Source of the DNA: a virus
IMG/VR virus record: IMGVR_UViG_3300049737_000693
Span: 1 to 6,244 of that record
Reading direction: 5' to 3' (one strand)
DNA: 6,244 bases
Made by a program: the position numbers and the translations under genes. The notes below the pieces were generated by a model that worked only from the letters and a program-made list of their open reading frames with translations, did not search any database and had not been told where the DNA came from. This document shows positions 1-6,244 of this stretch, in pieces. Each line of letters begins with the position of its first letter. Within the stretch, counting starts at the first letter, position 1.

Positions 1-127
1 TTGCAATTTTTCTATAGTGTGCTTAACCTCATTACCTTTTCCATAGACCTTAGAGCGCACCAAGCGAGAAGTCGCACCGCCATAATAAGCAGTATTAATA
101 AAGTCGCGCTTTTTAGTGTCGTTTTTT
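1..127. repeat. Terminal overlap copy A, identical to 6118-6244. It marks circular permutation or an assembly overlap, not a biological repeat.
   Basis: I compared 1-127 with 6118-6244 base by base and they are identical. The sequence lies inside the gII coding region. Confidence 0.95.
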
Positions 128-627
128 CTTTGGCCATTACTGACAGAAGATAGAAAACGAATAGCAGGCGTTATCATATTGGCAGAGGGTAAAGAAGCGG
201 AGTAAGTAGCATCTAGCTGCCTAACATCGGTTTTCCATAAATCAAGACATTCAGAAACGAACCAAGGATAAACCGACTCAAGAATGGCGAACATCTCAGC
301 AGCGCCATTAAAGATACTCTCACCGCCATAAACATTATGACCCTGAAGAAGCTTTGCAGGGCTTGCTTTTAATTCCATGTAAGGCGGAGTTAATCGACAA
401 GTATCATAAAATTTTATAGCAAGCGAAGAAAAGGAAGAGGGCAAAGACTCATAAGGGTGATATAACTCGCCATGTGTGACGACCCTAGTAACAGGGTCAC
501 GAGATATATGACGAGTAGAAGAAGCTAGGCCATAATCAGCAACATCACCTTTAATAGTCCAAAGATCACCACGTTTATCATAAAACTCAGGACGCATAGG
601 AACGCGAAGAACTAACATATCTAGCAT
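1..627 (-). CDS. gII: Replication initiation protein, Ff gene II family, N-terminal 209 codons. The full gene is complement(join(5488..6117,1..627)), 418 aa.
   Basis: The ATG at 627 follows AAGGAG by 6 nt, and I translated it without stops down to position 1. The product begins MLDMLVLRVPM, then HPYESLPSSFSSLAIKFYD, ELKASPAKLLQGHNVYG, QLDATYSASLP and SSVSNGQRK. These parallel f1/M13 pII MIDMLVLRLPF, HPFESLPTHYSGIAFKIYE, EIKASPAKVLQGHNVFG, RIDATFSARAP and RNVSNGQTK (from recall). Confidence 0.9.
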   Translation of the reverse strand, partial: MLDMLVLRVPMRPEFYDKRGDLWTIKGDVADYGLASSTRHISRDPVTRVVTHGELYHPYESLPSSFSSLAIKFYDTCRLTPPYMELKASPAKLLQGHNVYGGESIFNGAAEMFAILESVYPWFVSECLDLWKTDVRQLDATYSASLPSANMITPAIRFLSSVSNGQRKNDTKKRDFINTAYYGGATSRLVRSKVYGKGNEVKHTIEKLQ

Positions 628-784: not shown

Positions 785-1108
785 CTAACCCCCAACGCAT
801 TGACAAGAATATAAAACAGGCAAATCAATTTGGGCTAATTCGCAAAATTCACAAAAAGGAACATCAGGGTCAACATGAATTTCGGTAAAAAAGATGCCCT
901 CGACCACCGCAGAAGCGGTTTCAGAGGGACGAGGGCAAAGGGAGGTTTTTAAAATATCTTTTAATCGTTCGTTGTTTTCTAAGACATAATTTAAGTCAAT
1001 AGAGGGCAAAGAAAGGTTTTTATGATAAACATCTGACGCAGCCAAAGACTTTATAAGACTACAAATATCAGTATGACTTAAAGTTAAAGTATATAATTGA
1101 TCTGACAT
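785..1108 (-). CDS. 107-aa hypothetical protein with a C-terminal CxxC...CxC cluster, possibly a zinc-binding regulator. It is the first gene of the leftward operon.
   Basis: The ATG at 1108 follows AGAGGTG by 5 nt, whereas the ORF-track start at 1177 lies upstream of the predicted promoter -10. Cys86/Cys89 (CEFC) and Cys102/Cys104 (CQC) form a Cys4 pattern. I recognise no family. Confidence 0.55.
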   Translation of the reverse strand: MSDQLYTLTLSHTDICSLIKSLAASDVYHKNLSLPSIDLNYVLENNERLKDILKTSLCPRPSETASAVVEGIFFTEIHVDPDVPFCEFCELAQIDLPVLYSCQCVGG

Positions 1109-1119
1109 AATAACACCTC

Positions 1120-1147
1120 TGAATGTGCAAATAGTAGATTTGAATGT
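1120..1147. promoter_or_regulatory. Candidate operator: direct repeats of TGAATGT that bracket the -10 box.
   Basis: TGAATGT occurs at 1120-1126 and 1141-1147, 21 nt apart, which is about two helical turns. One copy lies in the -35/-10 spacer and the other at the predicted transcript start. GTCAA also repeats at 1154-1158 and 1161-1165. Confidence 0.35.
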
Positions 1148-1158
1148 AAACTTGTCAA
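1131..1158 (-). promoter_or_regulatory. Candidate sigma70 promoter for the minus-strand operon (107-aa ORF, 53-aa ORF, gII and downstream genes).
   Basis: On the minus strand there is a perfect -35 TTGACA (1158..1153), a 16-nt spacer and a -10 TACTAT (1136..1131). The first ATG is at 1108. The plus-strand TTGTCA (1152-1157) overlaps back to back and could be the -35 of the divergent promoter, with a weak -10 CATAAC at 1175-1180. Confidence 0.5.
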
Positions 1159-1239
1159 CAGTCAAGGTTACAAACATAACTTATCACGATAAAAACAATA
1201 TAGCAACGTATTTTTAATTATATTATTAGAGGGCTAAAA

Positions 1240-1458
1240 ATGACACGATCAATAAGACTAAACGAGATAGAAAGGAAGTTAATTAAAAAGAAATCAAGAG
1301 AAATAAATAAAAAGCTGGTTATGTCAGGCAGAGAACCGATGAAAGAAAGCGAAATACTACACGAAATATTAGAAAAAACAATAGAAAGGGCAGAGTTAAA
1401 CGGTCAAGGAAATATTGAAATAAGCCTAAATTTAGGCCAAGAGTCCACAACTAAATAA
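1240..1458 (+). CDS. 72-aa ribbon-helix-helix-like DNA-binding protein, a candidate phage repressor/regulator and the only plus-strand gene.
   Basis: AGAGGG lies 6 nt upstream of the ATG. The N-terminus TRSIRLNEIERKLIKKKS fits an RHH beta-strand plus helix A, and MKESEILHEILEKTIERA fits helix B. The gene is transcribed divergently from the main operon, as rstR is in CTXphi. Caveat: it is antisense to a T-rich region that corresponds to Ff origin domain B, and its last codons overlap the origin hairpin. Confidence 0.5.
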   Translation: MTRSIRLNEIERKLIKKKSREINKKLVMSGREPMKESEILHEILEKTIERAELNGQGNIEISLNLGQESTTK

Positions 1459-1467
1459 CGTGGACGA
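1424..1467 (-). promoter_or_regulatory. Ff-type (+)-strand origin core: a nick-site hairpin plus an adjacent palindrome that is the putative Rep binding site.
   Basis: Minus strand 1467->1424 reads TCGTCCAC GTTATTTAGTT GTGGACTC TTG GCCTAAATTTAGGC. The f1 origin as I recall it reads GAGTCCAC GTTCTTTAATA GTGGACTC TTG TTCCAAACTGGAA. That gives 22/27 identity over the hairpin, the same 11-nt loop, the same TTG spacer and a palindrome in the same place. The stem pairs 1465..1460 with 1448..1443. The nick predicted by analogy is GTTATTT^AGTT, between 1453 and 1452. Confidence 0.8.
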
Positions 1468-1519
1468 AAAGAAAAGATAATCTACTGACAGTTAATAACT
1501 GACCTAATGCCTAACGCTT

Positions 1520-1545
1520 GCCCCCAGCAAAAAGACGCTGGGCGC
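1520..1545. other. GC-rich hairpin in the convergent intergenic region, a candidate packaging-signal, (-) origin or terminator element.
   Basis: GCCCCCAGC (1520-1528) pairs with GCTGGGCGC (1537-1545): 8 of 9 positions pair (one C-C mismatch) around an 8-nt loop. No T-run follows on either strand. It is flanked by direct repeats CTAACGCTTG (1511-1520) and CTAACGGCTG (1547-1556). Confidence 0.4.
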
Positions 1546-1615
1546 GCTAACGGCTGTTAATTGAGGGGTCTCTATCGTTGATTATCGAAAAGAAGTTAAC
1601 TGGAGAAAAAGAAGT

Positions 1616-2935
1616 TTAACTTGATGCAGGATTGGGCGCAGTAGATGCCAGTGCAGGAGGTGCAGAGCTTTTAACTTTTGGGAGCATACCTTTTTTTGAT
1701 AAGTAGGCCTTGCAATCAGTATCAGAGATATGAGAGAGCAAAGCACCGTTACTATTATACAAAGAACACTCACCGTACATCTGCATACCAGAGACAGGAA
1801 CAAGGTTTATATCTTCGATATAGCCACCGCTTAAAGGGTCATAAATACCAGATGGCACAGCATCAGCATCAGCATCAGGAAGCGGAGCAGGGGCAACAGT
1901 AGGCGGAACAGCTTTATCCTGAGCTTTTGGAGCATCAAAAGGATTTTTAGTCATATCAGCAGTTGGAACATCAAAAGCAGGGTCTTTACCCATCATGCCA
2001 TTAACCAAAGTAGAGTCTTTTGAACCACTAGCAGCCCACACAAACATAGCTATAGCAAAGAAAATAACGAAAGCAAAACCTATCAACGCCTTAAACGGTA
2101 TGCGCTTTTGATGCGTGTTGATGGTTGTCGATTTATAGAGCTTAAAAAGCCTATCTGGTGGGCTAAAATTGAATTTACGCTCTGCACTCATTTTAATAGA
2201 TACAGCATTGGGATTTTGACGGTATGATCCGTATTGATAAACCTTTGACACCCAGCCCCACGGAACAGTAATATGCCAATGCAGCCCAATCAAATCCTTA
2301 ATCTGAACATGAAGCAAGTTAGCCGACTGAGTGATTAAATAAAAATCAAAACCTCTATGGCGGTGAATAGTCAAATCTTGAATGATAGGCTCATCTTTAT
2401 TCTTTGATTGCTTATAAGGCTCGACAAGCTGAACCTCGTCAATAACGATGATTGACCCATCAGGAGCCTTGCGCCAGTCAATATATTCTCTATCATCAAG
2501 CAAATCATATAGCGAGCGCACAAAGTCGATTTTCAAGGCGTTAATATTGGCGTATATCGTCCGCACTGGTAGCAGATACTTAAAACCAGTGATATTATCA
2601 GTTTCGACAATACGATTAATAATACTATTATAAATAGTAGCAACTTTATAATAGTCATCTGGGCGCAAGTCGTCATACTCGACAGATAACATATCAAAGT
2701 AATCATCTGGCAATATGGTTATTTCTTGCTTAAGCAAATGACCAGAGCCAACATCTTCATAGTAATAGGTCATCTGATTTTGCAAATCATAATCTTTGAT
2801 GATTTTTTGGTTATGCTGATAGTAAGCAATATTTTTAACCAGATTGACTTTGTTCTCCGACTCTGTTTTGTCTAATTTTGAGACGACAAAAACCGTTTTC
2901 TTTGCGCCTGGTACGCCAGTAACTAAGCCTAACAT
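1616..2935 (-). CDS. gI: Assembly/export NTPase of the pI / Zot family, 439 aa, with a cytoplasmic P-loop domain, one TM helix and a periplasmic C-terminal domain.
   Basis: GGAGG lies 9 nt upstream of the ATG at 2935. The Walker A-like GVPGAKKT matches the Zot-type G-x-P-G-x-x-K-T (CTXphi Zot GAPGSYKT, from recall). The Walker B is SIIVIDEVQ. The TM helix is FKALIGFAFVIFFAIAMFVWAA (about residues 281-302), followed by a Pro/Ala-rich linker. The gene follows gVI as in Ff. Confidence 0.85.
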   Translation of the reverse strand: MLGLVTGVPGAKKTVFVVSKLDKTESENKVNLVKNIAYYQHNQKIIKDYDLQNQMTYYYEDVGSGHLLKQEITILPDDYFDMLSVEYDDLRPDDYYKVATIYNSIINRIVETDNITGFKYLLPVRTIYANINALKIDFVRSLYDLLDDREYIDWRKAPDGSIIVIDEVQLVEPYKQSKNKDEPIIQDLTIHRHRGFDFYLITQSANLLHVQIKDLIGLHWHITVPWGWVSKVYQYGSYRQNPNAVSIKMSAERKFNFSPPDRLFKLYKSTTINTHQKRIPFKALIGFAFVIFFAIAMFVWAASGSKDSTLVNGMMGKDPAFDVPTADMTKNPFDAPKAQDKAVPPTVAPAPLPDADADAVPSGIYDPLSGGYIEDINLVPVSGMQMYGECSLYNSNGALLSHISDTDCKAYLSKKGMLPKVKSSAPPALASTAPNPASS

Positions 2936-2956
2936 TTATAAATTCCTCCGTTTTTC

Positions 2957-3006
2957 ATCGTCGTCAATCGTCGTCCCTCCTCTTCCTCCTCCTCAAAACG
3001 TCGTCA
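2957..3006 (-). promoter_or_regulatory. gVI-gI intergenic element: a 21-nt polypurine array of overlapping SD motifs flanked by phased CGTCGTC repeats.
   Basis: The minus strand reads TGACGACG TTTT GAGGAGGAGGAAGAGGAGGGA CGACGAT TGACGACGATG. On the plus strand ATCGTCGTC occurs at 2957-2965 and 2967-2975, and CGTCGTCA at 2999-3006 (starts at 2959, 2969 and 2999). The pyrimidine run spans 2974-2994. Confidence 0.3.
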
Positions 3007-3279
3007 TTTTTTACGTAGTGAGAGTTTAGAAGCGCCCAATGTTGCAGCAGTAACGATTGCGCCCAAAATAATACTAATTGCATAATCAAAACCAGCAATA
3101 TGAGCTAGACTTAAAATATCGGCAGGAATACCACCAGTATTAGCCCTAAACCTATCAATGAATTGATTTATCAAAAACATTGATGCGCCAGCAGTGCCAA
3201 GAGTAAGCCCAGCACCAGTTAAAATATCTTTTAACCAACCTTTATTTAATGACTTTAGTAACGCAGCTAGACTACCCAT
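3004..3279 (-). CDS. gVI: 91-aa hydrophobic minor virion protein, the pVI / Ace positional analogue.
   Basis: It lies between gIII and gI as in Ff and CTXphi. The protein has hydrophobic Gly/Ala-rich segments and a basic C-terminus (LRKK). Its start overlaps the gIII stop in ATGGGTAG (3279..3272), and GGAGGT lies upstream. Confidence 0.65.
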   Translation of the reverse strand: MGSLAALLKSLNKGWLKDILTGAGLTLGTAGASMFLINQFIDRFRANTGGIPADILSLAHIAGFDYAISIILGAIVTAATLGASKLSLRKK

Positions 3280-4564
3280 TTTCTTTACGACCTCCGACTA
3301 TATAAATTGCGAACAAACTTGAAGCAGCATAAACAGGCCATTTAACGTAAGTAGATAGAAAATCACAAAGCATGACAGTATCTAACATCGTGAACTCGAT
3401 AGACTGACCAAAAATAGAGCCATTAAAGACGATAGGCGCAGGGCATGAGCCGCCAAAGTTGAAGTTAGTATCTGTCGGCTGTTCGTCAGGCTCTTGCAAG
3501 TCGATCTCAGTATCTGTCTGCTCAGGCTCAGCCTTAACCCAATCAATAAAATCACAAACAGGCGTAGCCCAATCACAAAACGCTGGCCATTCTGTCGGCA
3601 TAGGGTCAGGGTTTGGGTTTGGGTTTGGATTGTCAGGGTCAGTGTCAGTGTCAGGGTCAGTGTCAGGGTCAGTGCCAGTGTCAGGGTCAGTGCCAGTGTC
3701 AGGCTCAGTGCCGGGCTCATACTCATTCGGGCCGTACTGTTTTGGCTCTGCTTTAGACTCTAGTTGATCGTCTAATTGACCAGATTCTAGCTCGTCTAGT
3801 GCGCTATCTCTGATAACTTCCATGGCTGGAGCTTGACCTTCGTCAGCATATTCGATAACTTTTTGAGCGACTGTGTTAATGGGAATAGATTTCTCTTGAG
3901 GATTGGTATCAGAACCAGAACCAGTGGCATCGCTACCAGTTATCCTAACAGAACCCCAGTTACCACCATCAGCATACTTACAGCCAAACTCAGATTTATA
4001 ATAATCATAAATACCGCCATAAATACCAGATAACCTTACAGGGTCAAAATCAGGGTCTTGAGAGAGCTTAAGAGCTTTACAAAATGCAGTAGGGTTATAA
4101 TAACGCGCACCCTCAAAATCAACATAAGCACCACGTCCGCCAGTATCAGACGGAGAGCCGACAACATCACCATCATCAGTATAAGTGACACTATTGTTAG
4201 CAGGGTCAAGCACCCAATCTACAGTCTTACCTAATATGTCATAGACAGCAGCACCAATAACGCCACCGACACCACCCCTTAGCAATCTTTTGCCAACCTT
4301 AGCAGCATTAGCAGGGATTTTGATTGTTGATTTTTGATTTTTGGTTATTGTGTCTTTTGCGTCAGTTTGTGGGTCAACTACTGTCACCGGATAATTGCGA
4401 TTTGCTTTGACTTCGACTGTACTTTTAACGGTTGGATCATTAACGATTGAGTCATGAAACCATTTAGAGTGTTTAGGGTTTGGGTCATAGACAGCAAAAG
4501 ACGGAACAATGACAAGAGTAAAAGATAGCGCGAACGCTATAAAACGCTTAATTATGATATTCAT
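3272..4564 (-). CDS. gIII: 430-aa pIII-like adsorption/minor coat protein with a signal peptide, an N-terminal receptor domain, a low-complexity linker and a C-terminal anchor domain.
   Basis: AGGGG lies 5 nt upstream of the ATG at 4564. The signal peptide is MNIIIKRFIAFALSFTLVIVPSFA and the linker is EPGTEPDTGTDPDTGTDPDTDPDTDTDPDNPNPNPNPDP. The C-terminal FNFGGSCP...SIEF...LCDF followed by the hydrophobic anchor VYAASSLFAIYIVGGRKENG mirrors the Ff pIII C-domain layout. It is the largest gene after gVIII. Confidence 0.8.
   Translation of the reverse strand: MNIIIKRFIAFALSFTLVIVPSFAVYDPNPKHSKWFHDSIVNDPTVKSTVEVKANRNYPVTVVDPQTDAKDTITKNQKSTIKIPANAAKVGKRLLRGGVGGVIGAAVYDILGKTVDWVLDPANNSVTYTDDGDVVGSPSDTGGRGAYVDFEGARYYNPTAFCKALKLSQDPDFDPVRLSGIYGGIYDYYKSEFGCKYADGGNWGSVRITGSDATGSGSDTNPQEKSIPINTVAQKVIEYADEGQAPAMEVIRDSALDELESGQLDDQLESKAEPKQYGPNEYEPGTEPDTGTDPDTGTDPDTDPDTDTDPDNPNPNPNPDPMPTEWPAFCDWATPVCDFIDWVKAEPEQTDTEIDLQEPDEQPTDTNFNFGGSCPAPIVFNGSIFGQSIEFTMLDTVMLCDFLSTYVKWPVYAASSLFAIYIVGGRKENG
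3609..3715. repeat. Hexanucleotide tandem repeats inside gIII that encode the TD/PD/TG/PN dipeptide linker.
   Basis: GGGTTT x3 occupies 3609-3626. About 14 consecutive GTCAGG/GTCAGT/GCCAGT hexamers follow at 3632-3715, including the 18-nt unit GTCAGGGTCAGTGCCAGT twice in tandem. Confidence 0.9.
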
Positions 4565-4572
4565 ATCAACCC

Positions 4573-4659
4573 CTATCTAAATGACCATGTAACCAAGACA
4601 AGAGCAAAAGCAATCATCGCGTAAGGGAGTAAATTTAGTATGCTAGGGGCATCTGTCAT
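4573..4659 (-). CDS. 28-aa small hydrophobic protein (MTDAPSILNLLPYAMIAFALVLVTWSFR), pVII/pIX-like in architecture. An alternative start at 4665 gives 30 aa.
   Basis: It is absent from the ORF track because it is under 60 aa. AAGGA lies 7 nt upstream of the ATG at 4659. The protein has an acidic N-terminus, one hydrophobic helix and a terminal Arg, as Ff pVII does. Its stop TAG at 4575..4573 lies 8 nt before the gIII ATG, and the gIII SD AGGGG overlaps that stop, so the ORF fills an otherwise empty gap. Confidence 0.5.
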   Translation of the reverse strand: MTDAPSILNLLPYAMIAFALVLVTWSFR

Positions 4660-4671
4660 ATCCATATCCTT

Positions 4672-4709
4672 AAAAAAAAGATAGCCCTACTTTTTAGGGT
4701 AGAGCTATC
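4672..4709 (-). terminator. Rho-independent terminator immediately downstream of the major coat gene.
   Basis: The minus strand reads GATAGCUCUAC ccuaaaaa GUAGGGCUAUC UUUUUUUU. This is an 11-bp stem with one G-U pair (4709..4699 pairing with 4690..4680), an 8-nt loop and a U8 tract (4679..4672). It occupies the same position as the Ff terminator after gVIII. Confidence 0.8.
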
Positions 4710-4730
4710 ATTTAAACGCTATAGAACAAA

Positions 4731-4985
4731 TTAGGCTTTGTTAACGCCTGATTTGAGGTATTGATAGCCTTTAAATGTACCCAGAATACCAACACCAATG
4801 GCGAAAATACCTAAAGCAACCGCTAAAGCAGCGCTGATATTTTCAGTTACACCCGTACCCAAAGCAGTAATATTATCTTCTGCCAGTGCTGCATTAGTAG
4901 CACCAATAACGGCAAATGCTACGGCAGCTTGTGCTAGGGTATTGCGCTTTTTAGTTGGCGCGGCAACAACTTGATTTTCTGACAT
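4731..4985 (-). CDS. gVIII: Major coat protein precursor (pVIII-like), 84 aa, with a predicted 35-aa signal peptide and a 49-aa mature protein.
   Basis: AAGGAAAG lies upstream of the ATG at 4985. The signal sequence ends in ALA, followed by mature EDNITALGTGVTENISAALAVALGIFAIGVGILGTFKGYQYLKSGVNKA. That mature protein has an acidic N-terminus, a hydrophobic core and a Lys-rich C-terminus, which is the canonical inovirus coat layout. The ORF-track start at 5069 overlaps the upstream gene and has no SD. Confidence 0.85.
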   Translation of the reverse strand: MSENQVVAAPTKKRNTLAQAAVAFAVIGATNAALAEDNITALGTGVTENISAALAVALGIFAIGVGILGTFKGYQYLKSGVNKA

Positions 4986-4999
4986 GACAGCTTTCCTTT

Positions 5000-5182
5000 T
5001 TAAGCTAGTTTTATTGCCTTTGCTATGATTGCGTAAGATGCACACATAGCAAAGAATGATATGACCCATTGCCCAACCAGATAAGCATCAGCTTGAGATA
5101 AGGCTAAGGTCTGTGGGGCGTTATAAACGACCCATTCCATGCACGTATTAGAAACTTGATCAAGAGTCTGGCAGACGTACAT
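5000..5182 (-). CDS. 60-aa small protein with a C-terminal TM helix, at the position of Ff gVII/gIX.
   Basis: AAGGAA lies 4 nt upstream of the ATG at 5182. The hydrophobic segment is LVGQWVISFFAMCASYAIIAKAI. It sits between the gV-position ORF and gVIII, and its stop is 15 nt before the gVIII ATG. Confidence 0.55.
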   Translation of the reverse strand: MYVCQTLDQVSNTCMEWVVYNAPQTLALSQADAYLVGQWVISFFAMCASYAIIAKAIKLA

Positions 5183-5190
5183 AAAATTCC

Positions 5191-5478
5191 TTACATTTCA
5201 GTGAGTATTGAAGTCGGATCAAGAATATCGGATTGAGTCAAAAACCAAACACCACCGCCCTTTTTCTTTGGAGTAGCTGTCACAGATATTTGTACCGTTT
5301 CATTAATATGTTTTTGATAATTAGGCATAAAATGGGCACACTCGTCAGTAATGATAACTTGCTCAGAGCATGGTACATTCTTATTAAGACCGCGATCATA
5401 ACGCTCAGACTCAAACGTTATAGTCTTAAAACCATCATTATTTTCAACTTTTAAAATCTCACCCATATAAATAATCAT
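5191..5478 (-). CDS. 95-aa protein at the gV position, a candidate ssDNA-binding protein.
   Basis: It follows gII immediately (a 9-nt gap), with AGGA 7 nt upstream of the ATG at 5478. Its size falls in the pV range. The call is positional only, since I see no sequence similarity to Ff pV. An alternative ATG lies at 5466. Confidence 0.45.
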   Translation of the reverse strand: MIIYMGEILKVENNDGFKTITFESERYDRGLNKNVPCSEQVIITDECAHFMPNYQKHINETVQISVTATPKKKGGGVWFLTQSDILDPTSILTEM

Positions 5479-5487
5479 AATAATTTC

Positions 5488-5871
5488 CTAAGCGACTAAG
5501 CGCGGTTTATTGTAGCGGTTGAAGTAGTGGTCATAATCAGGACGATGTAAAGAGTTTGGCGGAACGTAACCATCAGGAGCTTGTTTAGAAAAATCAATTT
5601 TTACAATATCAACCATAGGCAAAACACGGGCATGAGTGCCAAGATTTTGCAAATGGGCTTTAGGAATACCAATATCAACAAGGCATTTAACAAGGTTGTT
5701 AAACTGAGAAGAACTATAGCGACCTTTAATAGCATCATAGCCATTAATTTTTAACAACTGAAAAAAGTTAAAAGCATTGTTCGCTTTTGTGTAACTGATA
5801 TTACCTTTAGCGGTATAGCTAACTAGCTTTGATCTACATAACTTTTGAATTTCTTTATCACTAATATCCAT
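5488..5871 (-). CDS. gX: Candidate nested gene X: an in-frame internal start within gII giving a 127-aa C-terminal product.
   Basis: The internal ATG at 5871 (EGEV-MDISDKEIQ) aligns with the Ff pX start (EGDS-MNIYDDSAV). GAAGGTGA lies 4 nt upstream of it. Confidence 0.45.
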   Translation of the reverse strand: MDISDKEIQKLCRSKLVSYTAKGNISYTKANNAFNFFQLLKINGYDAIKGRYSSSQFNNLVKCLVDIGIPKAHLQNLGTHARVLPMVDIVKIDFSKQAPDGYVPPNSLHRPDYDHYFNRYNKPRLVA

Positions 5872-6244
5872 GACTTCACCTTCGAGAGCTTTGAGAATAG
5901 GCGCGAACCCTTCAAGCCATAATTTTTGTAGTAAATTTGGGTGTCTGTATTGGTACTCTATCAAACGCCATAAATTAGTAGGTAAACCGGAACGCTCAAG
6001 CTTACGAGCCATGACGCTATGTTCGAAACGCAGCAAGCAAGATGAGAATTTTATTAATTCGGGTGTGTAAACCTTTAAAGCGTCACGAGAATGTAAACAA
6101 CCTTTATCAGATTTTTTTTGCAATTTTTCTATAGTGTGCTTAACCTCATTACCTTTTCCATAGACCTTAGAGCGCACCAAGCGAGAAGTCGCACCGCCAT
6201 AATAAGCAGTATTAATAAAGTCGCGCTTTTTAGTGTCGTTTTTT
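5488..6244 (-). CDS. gII: Replication initiation protein, Ff gene II family, C-terminal part. The 5' end runs off the window, and 6118-6244 duplicates 1-127.
   Basis: It is in frame with the 1..627 fragment (627-63 is divisible by 3). LLRFEHSVMARKLERSGLPTNLW, GIPKAHLQNLGT and VLPMVDIVKIDFSKQAPDGY parallel f1 pII LVRFEARIKTRYLKSFGLPLNLF, GIPKSQLMNLST and VVPLVRFINVDFSSQRPDWY (from recall). The ORF-track start at 6180 is only the first TTG inside the window. Confidence 0.9.
   Translation of the reverse strand, partial: KNDTKKRDFINTAYYGGATSRLVRSKVYGKGNEVKHTIEKLQKKSDKGCLHSRDALKVYTPELIKFSSCLLRFEHSVMARKLERSGLPTNLWRLIEYQYRHPNLLQKLWLEGFAPILKALEGEVMDISDKEIQKLCRSKLVSYTAKGNISYTKANNAFNFFQLLKINGYDAIKGRYSSSQFNNLVKCLVDIGIPKAHLQNLGTHARVLPMVDIVKIDFSKQAPDGYVPPNSLHRPDYDHYFNRYNKPRLVA
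6118..6244. repeat. Terminal overlap copy B, identical to 1-127.
   Basis: Same comparison as copy A. A length of exactly 127 nt is what a k=127 de Bruijn assembler leaves on a circular contig. Confidence 0.95.

Follow-up and report, generated by a model that had tools for sequence, protein, structure and literature searches.

Judged by its conservation, the 72-aa ORF at 1240..1458 on the plus strand of the window—the window being the whole stretch of 6,244 nt analyzed here—is a genuine gene, and its 3′ end overlaps the origin of replication of the phage that carries it. The gene starts with ATG and is a member of phrog_5642, an uncharacterized inovirus family. Codons 1 to 61 (1240..1422, plus strand) constitute the conserved family core, as delimited by the family alignment and AlphaFold2. 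Codons 62 to 72 with the TAA stop (1423..1458, plus strand) encode a lineage-specific tail, SLNLGQESTTK, and are the complement of the origin core. One DNA stretch is, hence, under two masters: where the Rep-binding palindrome begins, and still within the frame, a regulatory cassette that diverges fast gives way to the conserved Rep/origin module.

With its direct terminal repeats, in which bases 1–127 recur at 6118–6244, the window amounts to one complete circular inovirus genome of 6,117 nt. Its replication module is of the Ff type and comprises a gII-type Rep, a nick hairpin like that of M13, and a palindrome for Rep binding. All recognizable genes are carried by the minus strand, and the 72-aa ORF is the sole plus-strand candidate. 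The gII-type Rep (418 aa, minus strand) has its N-terminal part at 1..627 and continues over the circle junction to 6117..5488; it matches Phage_CRI (E = 1.6e-30) and G2P_X_C (E = 5.1e-16) in Pfam and is 98% identical at the amino acid level to that of L010, the relative used for comparison throughout. The other minus-strand genes are a small ssb-like gene, coat genes, a pIII-like gene, a DUF2523/pVI gene, and a Zot/pI gene. The first gene of the leftward rep operon is a Cys-rich 107-aa ORF (785..1108, minus strand), which bears the motifs C..C, CxxC, and CxC, is 57% identical in amino acid sequence to its counterpart in L010 (pS 0.43, pN 0.28), and gave no match in Pfam, PHROG, or NCBIfam; it could be a second regulator in a Cro or antirepressor position. 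From the Zot/pI stop to the nick hairpin extends a conserved structured noncoding block (1466..1615, minus strand), which is probably the packaging signal plus the minus-strand origin. Its GC-rich hairpin at 1521–1546 shows compensatory changes—CCCAGC/GCTGGG in the window and CTTGGC/GCCAAG at 3181–3206 of L010—and such changes point to a structure that is functional as DNA or RNA, be it minus-strand origin, packaging signal, or terminator. In a whole-genome blastn search against phage records, the sole match was 144 nt in rep.

The 72-aa ORF is preceded by a Shine–Dalgarno sequence, GAGGG, 7 nt upstream of the ATG at 1240. It matches phrog_5642 with E = 8.8e-20, with residues 1 to 62 falling on profile positions 5 to 66 of 68. 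An exhaustive HMMER search yielded 70 clusters at 50% identity, every one of them aligned to residues 1 to 61, and the profile made from these clusters is matched with E = 6e-20. The profile search returned 157 proteins, all labeled hypothetical, from genomes of Pseudomonas, Azotobacter, Stutzerimonas, and Acinetobacter and from many contigs of 6 to 8 kb; a word-based protein search with the 72-aa protein matched only the protein itself, and NCBIfam gave no match for it. Homologues are 30 to 47% identical across genomes of very different GC content. The copy in the GC-rich Pseudomonas phage NEU2023 shares 44% amino acid identity despite the A-rich DNA of the window, and this similarity of the proteins across different DNA composition excludes conservation at the DNA level only.

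The position of the gene is conserved as well. Both in seven annotated inoviruses and in prophages of Acinetobacter radioresistens, the homologue stands alone on the opposite strand and is divergent from a Phage_CRI rep; the distance to rep is about 120 nt in phages and prophages, and in the prophages no further gene separates the homologue from host DNA. At L132/L133 (A. radioresistens CP059684.1), several inovirus prophage copies are arrayed in tandem, and the family gene is terminal and adjoins host DNA; one of the copies has a Rep_trans-type initiator and neighbors copies with the gII type.

The homologue in L010 also has 72 aa and is 67% identical. L010, L011, and L131—two IMG/VR contigs and one metagenome contig—are identical in this region and count as one independent relative; a metagenome scan for further close relatives gave only the L010-identical copy, and a genome scan gave none. 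Against this one independent close relative, codons 1 to 61 have a pS of 0.69 and a pN of 0.20, by which the core is under purifying selection. In the other frames, the ratio is near 1; the one exception is the complementary frame, whose third positions coincide with those of the ORF and which is interrupted by stops.

These data bear on the alternative of no gene at all, in which the frame would be open by chance within a 507-nt intergenic region that is A-rich and resembles that of Ff, and constraint on domain B DNA would account for its apparent conservation. Open frames of 72 or more codons do occur in 1 to 2% of composition-matched shuffles, which makes length alone weak evidence, so that the case for a gene rests on conservation; and if the gene were disregarded, the region would have the length of the Ff intergenic region. 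However, a chance frame would fit neither the profile match at E = 9e-20, nor homologues of 30 to 47% identity in genomes differing strongly in GC, nor the large excess of pS over pN that is confined to the ORF frame, barring the stop-containing complementary frame with shared third positions; moreover, M13 domain B has no DNA similarity to the ORF region. The probability left to a chance frame is close to nil, and we regard it as ruled out by the profile match, the homologue clusters, the synteny, and the purifying selection. The alternative put forward beside it by the sequence-only reading, a genuine overlap of coding sequence and origin, is upheld by the same evidence: the profile match, about 70 homologue clusters, conserved synteny, and purifying selection. 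The scan found neither a terminator after the ORF nor, for the plus-strand gene, an acceptable promoter of the sigma-70 type.

The overlap of gene and origin exists at the level of the DNA. The minus strand at 1465..1438 reads GTCCACGTTATTTAGTTGTGGACTCTTG and is identical to M13 5768–5795 at 25 of 28 bases; the origin-core pattern has a single occurrence in the window and none in 200 shuffles. The nick hairpin of the plus-strand origin (1443..1465, minus strand) consists of the stems 1465..1460 and 1448..1443 and the loop 1459..1449, and the TAA of the ORF (1456–1458) sits in this loop. In M13, the nick lies between 5780T and 5781A, the gIIp footprint spans 5774–5813, and domain A spans 5769–5819 (PMC5405960). 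Transferred by the M13 register, the nick site would lie between 1453 and 1452 of the window, i.e., between codons 72 and 71; the footprint maps onto 1459..1420; and the domain A equivalent onto 1464..1414, which is codons 59 to 72. The presumed Rep-binding site (1424..1442, minus strand) is composed of TCTTG (1442..1438) and the palindrome GCCTAAATTTAGGC (1437..1424). The palindrome occupies the position of the gpII-binding repeat of M13, just downstream of the nick hairpin, and both palindrome and nick hairpin fold in the single strand (z = −3.1). The loop and stem sequence of an Ff-type nick hairpin is, hence, followed by a presumed initiator-binding repeat, and the genome also encodes the cognate initiator with Phage_CRI and G2P_X_C domains. 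Both the M13 alignment and the folding bear out what had been noted from the letters, namely that codons 62 to 72 (1423–1455) are the complement of palindrome and nick hairpin and that the stop lies in the loop.

Upstream in the reading frame, the correspondence with the Ff origin is looser. The body of the ORF had been proposed to be antisense to a T-rich counterpart of Ff domain B. It does hold in composition and place—the ORF body is 51% A, which makes the viral strand T-rich, and the position is the same—but not in sequence, where similarity is lacking. In Ff phages, the whole origin region is noncoding, and domain B binds IHF (PMC5405960).

The two parts of the gene differ in predicted structure. 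With an alignment of 55 sequences, AlphaFold2 gave a monomer model with a mean pLDDT of 86, in which the core comprises an extended N-terminus, helices at residues 9–28 and 36–48, and a β-hairpin at residues 51–61; in the tail, the pLDDT goes down to 37. Most homologues terminate two to four residues past the conserved G-x-I-x-I β-hairpin, and the protein of the window is about eight residues longer. Residues 62 to 72 lie outside the family core and are predicted to be disordered. The 11-residue tail is probably dispensable for function.

The tail also differs from the core in its rate of change. Relative to L010, one of its 36 nt differs. At the rate of the gene body, so little change would hardly be expected (P = 7e-5), whereas the rep-module rate accommodates it (P = 0.27). 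By this comparison with one relative, the tail evolves with the origin/rep module and not with the gene. Its unchanged synonymous sites are not direct evidence of selection by the origin: in the whole-genome mosaic, the tail shares the low divergence of the rep/origin module, and with L010 as the single relative its constancy may reflect either origin constraint or recombination history. The proposal that the tail is dictated by origin sequence stands on its location outside the family core, its predicted disorder, and its evolution with the origin block.

A whole-genome alignment of the window and L010 alone reveals a mosaic of four blocks. The rep and ssb genes (5191–6117 and 1–784) are 91 to 95% identical at the nucleotide level, with a pS of 0.28 for Rep. 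The regulatory cassette (785–1422), made up of the 107-aa ORF, the intergenic region, and ORF codons 1 to 61, is 55 to 71% identical. Identity is 86 to 98% in the origin and cis block (1423 to about 1600) and 48 to 59% in the structural genes (1616–5190), where Zot has a pS of 0.75. The right-hand edge of the diverged cassette lies inside the ORF, between codons 61 and 62, which is the exact edge of the palindrome. The gene is arranged divergently to the rep operon, and with its candidate operators it forms a variable cassette that conserved replication sequences enclose on both sides. Rep and origin are conserved together though the diverged cassette physically separates them. This joint conservation points to an exchange of modules or, alternatively, to selection that keeps Rep and origin matched.

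The wider occurrence of such genes was surveyed with an IMG/VR scan for the pattern GTCCAC-N(9-13)-GTGGACTCTTG, which together with the loci already found gave at least 125 loci with the hairpin pattern. At 105 of the 125 listed loci, an antisense ORF of at least 45 aa ends between −30 and +150 nt from the hairpin. The phrog_5642 family is carried by 37 of the 125, in every case (37/37) on the strand opposite to the origin. About 30 of these 37 genes have their stop 25 to 53 nt short of the hairpin, just past the palindrome, and among the listed family loci only the frames of the window and L010 enter the hairpin: for this family, the overlap is lineage-specific. The palindrome following GTGGACTCTTG varies by genome yet stays self-complementary (TCTAACGGTTAGA, TGCAATGGATGCA, TCTCATGGTGAGA, and others; loci L012–L130), as expected for a determinant of Rep specificity.

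The same slot is occupied by other genes in other genomes. Proteins of the Cro/cI type (HTH_3/HTH_31) were found in it at 15 of the listed loci, with E of about 1e-10; further occupants are small families, a distant relative of the phrog_5642 family (hhalign 84%), and some possibly spurious ORFs. Twelve nonfamily ORFs at the listed loci end inside the hairpin, at least one of them representing a conserved family. An unrelated, conserved antisense family of 76 to 84 aa with a hydrophobic N-terminus, which looks like a small membrane or secreted protein, occurs at L027, L071, L084, and L089 versus L029, L031, L054, L057, and L124; one of its sub-lineages ends ahead of the hairpin (…EQKSNR), and a second continues into it as …EQKSHHETRVHH, with TRVH being the hairpin stem in another frame. 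This family is an independent second case of an origin-encoded gene tail, and frames reading into the origin are a recurrent outcome of compaction. To call a repressor notable in an Ff-type module was, therefore, an overstatement: an antisense ORF abuts the origin at 105 of the 125 listed loci, Cro/cI-type HTH genes included. M13, without a gene at this slot, is the exception among genomes with such an origin. This corrects the textbook picture drawn from M13—in most environmental phages sampled, an antisense gene lies against the M13-type origin, standing where M13 has its noncoding replication enhancer. At L101, an IMG/VR contig, the ORF beside the Ff-type hairpin is a look-alike of a clamp-loader-type AAA+ ATPase of 282 aa, which is odd for an inovirus; the contig may be of a noninovirus, or the hairpin match may be fortuitous. 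A literature search on NEU2023 and on overlap of origin and repressor in inoviruses found nothing relevant.

The fold of the 72-aa protein had been labeled RHH-like from its sequence. This label could not be substantiated: Pfam, a PDB profile search, hhalign, and Foldseek were all nonsignificant. The best Pfam hits of the protein were DUF155 (E = 0.059) and DUF6290 (E = 0.17), both nonsignificant; across 55 members of the family, DUF6290 was touched by three and a NikA-like profile by two, which is inconsistent. The best match of the PDB profile search was NikA at a nonsignificant E = 0.17. Aligned by hhalign against single sequences, the family gave probabilities of 1% for CopG and 10% for Arc; at these probabilities, strand and first helix were in correct register. 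The CopG sequence used here is 96% identical to the database CopG. Against the real CopG family alignment, hhalign gave 1.3% and was out of register. PF01402, searched in all six frames, gave no hit, and Foldseek returned nothing below E = 0.2 and no RHH match in either PDB or BFVD.

Some features of the protein recall regulators such as CopG of pMV158 and omega-type RHH proteins. These, like the 72-aa protein, are very small, basic, and encoded beside a rolling-circle rep, whose transcription they control and the 72-aa protein probably does. The predicted order of extended N-terminus (residues 1 to 8), helix, and helix would fit that of CopG, and the N-terminal residues S4-I5-R6-L7-N8 alternate between polar and hydrophobic. 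In contrast to classical RHH proteins, helix 1 is longer (about 20 residues), the loop has seven residues and is longer as well, and the AlphaFold2 monomer features an extra C-terminal β-hairpin. CopG is co-transcribed with repB and not divergent from it. An RHH fold of the protein is, hence, not established. For the Pseudomonas inovirus PMBT54, an omega-like ORF13 has been reported (PMC10534721); tblastn with the phrog_5642 family protein gave no match in this phage.

The 72-aa protein is probably a transcriptional regulator of the rep operon. This reading draws on its position, on repeats around the rep-operon promoter, on a divergent cassette resembling rstR/ig-2, and on the HTH genes in the same slot. 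The divergent promoter region with the candidate operators (1109..1239) is the segment most diverged from L010 (55% identity). It holds a sigma-70-like leftward promoter of the rep operon on the minus strand, composed of TTGACA (1158..1153), a spacer of 16 nt, and TACTAT (1136..1131). Repeats of the ATGT type are found in the window at 1122–1131 and 1143–1152 and, inverted, at 1170–1180. In every family-bearing genome, a conserved −35 element (GTCAAC on the plus strand) is flanked by repeats that are specific to the genome: four copies of TGTRAACA in L010, TGCATGCA or TGCACACA in the Pseudomonas group, and TTCTATAGAA in Dulem virus 65. In four of five AT-rich relatives, sites of the form ATGTRAAC cluster upstream of the gene; with the motif chosen post hoc, by eye, and from the same regions, this clustering is at most suggestive of operators.

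Under the transcriptional reading, the 61-residue core would be the DNA-binding part of the regulator. Its targets would be the repeats that surround the leftward promoter within 1109–1239, and through them it would control the rep operon and probably itself too, and the outcome may be copy-number control or immunity, by analogy with RstR at ig-2 in CTXphi. A role as repressor, for which we infer both DNA binding and repression, is plausible. Two counterpoints apply. The slot also holds a protein of membrane or secreted appearance, so that position alone is no proof of a regulator, and the 72-aa protein has no significant match to any DNA-binding family.

Both counterpoints lend some weight to an accessory small protein without a role in transcription or replication control, the slot then being the one place in a compact inovirus that tolerates antisense cargo genes: many unrelated ORFs stand there, among them the conserved membrane- or secreted-like family, and a DNA-binding fold is not recognizable with significance. 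Such a protein is unlikely, however, given that the family is strictly paired with rep, divergent and about 120 nt away in phages and prophages alike, that repeats surround the shared promoter region, and that relatives carry HTH repressor-type genes in the same place; the protein is, moreover, basic, and its N-terminal SIRLN alternates polar and hydrophobic residues in the manner of DNA-reading strands.

The main rival to transcriptional regulation is a modulator of replication that acts at the origin or on Rep instead of at the promoter. It might inhibit or assist nicking, or stand in for the enhancer function of IHF/domain B, and its gene would then lie next to where the protein acts. Consistent with such a role, the gene lies directly beside the origin core in all listed genomes that carry both the family and an Ff-type hairpin, and it takes the position of Ff domain B; residues R6, K18, N23, S37, and H41, which are polar or basic, do not vary within the family; and GTGGACTCTTG is the same in all these genomes. 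A partner of Rep or of the origin should stay conserved alongside them, but the core is 62% identical to that of L010 and has diverged with the promoter region (55%), while Rep is 98% identical and the origin core nearly so. This co-divergence disfavors a modulator, as does the presence of the family beside hairpins of different sequence (Dulem virus 65), and we consider such a role rather unlikely.

The family occupies a recurrent slot in such phages, where its gene is opposite in strand to every other gene, diverges from the rep operon, and ends by the origin core. In the lineage of the window, the usual spacer of 25 to 53 nt between gene and origin has probably been lost; the frame then crosses the palindrome and ends at the first in-frame TAA, in the hairpin loop, giving the tail of 11 residues with predicted disorder. 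That this geometry is itself functional, coupling the expression of the regulator to occupancy of the origin by Rep, is quite improbable. If it were, the regulator mRNA, its last 15 codons included, would cross the Rep footprint and nick site; Rep bound to or covalently engaged at the origin could block or truncate the message, resulting in nonstop or shortened transcripts; and transcription that enters the hairpin could, in turn, interfere with cruciform extrusion and with nicking. To our knowledge, no replication–transcription feedback loop of this type has been described for filamentous phages.

RstR of CTXphi, an HTH protein, offers a close parallel in arrangement, and we know of no overlap of rstR with the CTXphi origin core. 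Both genes are small, lie on the opposite strand, and diverge from the replication operon; both form a variable gene-plus-promoter cassette; and the family gene stands at the element end in prophages. The proteins, however, are unrelated in sequence, and CTXphi has an RstA-type initiator and origin (rstA, ig-1), whereas the window has a gII-type Rep and an M13-like hairpin. In CTXphi, the highly divergent cassette of gene and operator between conserved replication sequences (rstR/ig-2) is the basis of allele-specific immunity (PMC11509585). With the Ff phages (M13/f1/fd), the window shares the nick hairpin, the subsequent CTCTTG plus palindrome at the gpII-binding position, and the order of structured block, nick hairpin, palindrome, A/T-rich stretch, and gII operon. 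Unlike in Ff, a gene on the other strand covers the domain B position together with 45 nt of what corresponds to domain A, and sequence similarity does not extend beyond the core.

Rolling-circle origins inside coding sequence occur elsewhere: the origin of phiX174 lies in gene A and that of pT181 in repC. As in these, the nick site of the window lies within an open reading frame, and one DNA stretch serves both replication and coding. In phiX174 and pT181, however, the origin is in the initiator's own gene on the same strand, whereas here it is in a different gene, on the opposite strand, and in a nonconserved 3′ tail. A regulatory gene beside the origin is an already known kind of system in inoviruses. 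The novelty is modest and consists of the uncharacterized family and of an overlap of gene and origin with the module boundary inside the reading frame.

The phrog_5642 family is widespread, with members in Pseudomonas and Acinetobacter prophages, and now has a concrete, testable proposed role as the control gene of the replication operon. For annotation, small antisense ORFs beside inovirus origins should be called as genes, and the C-terminal tails of such ORFs may be origin sequence outside the functional protein. Two further features of the genome concern its other genes: the secretin gene (gIV) of Ff phages is absent despite the Ff-type replication module, and the pIII-like gene has a long TD/PD/PN repeat linker, which is encoded by hexamer repeats at about 3600–3720.
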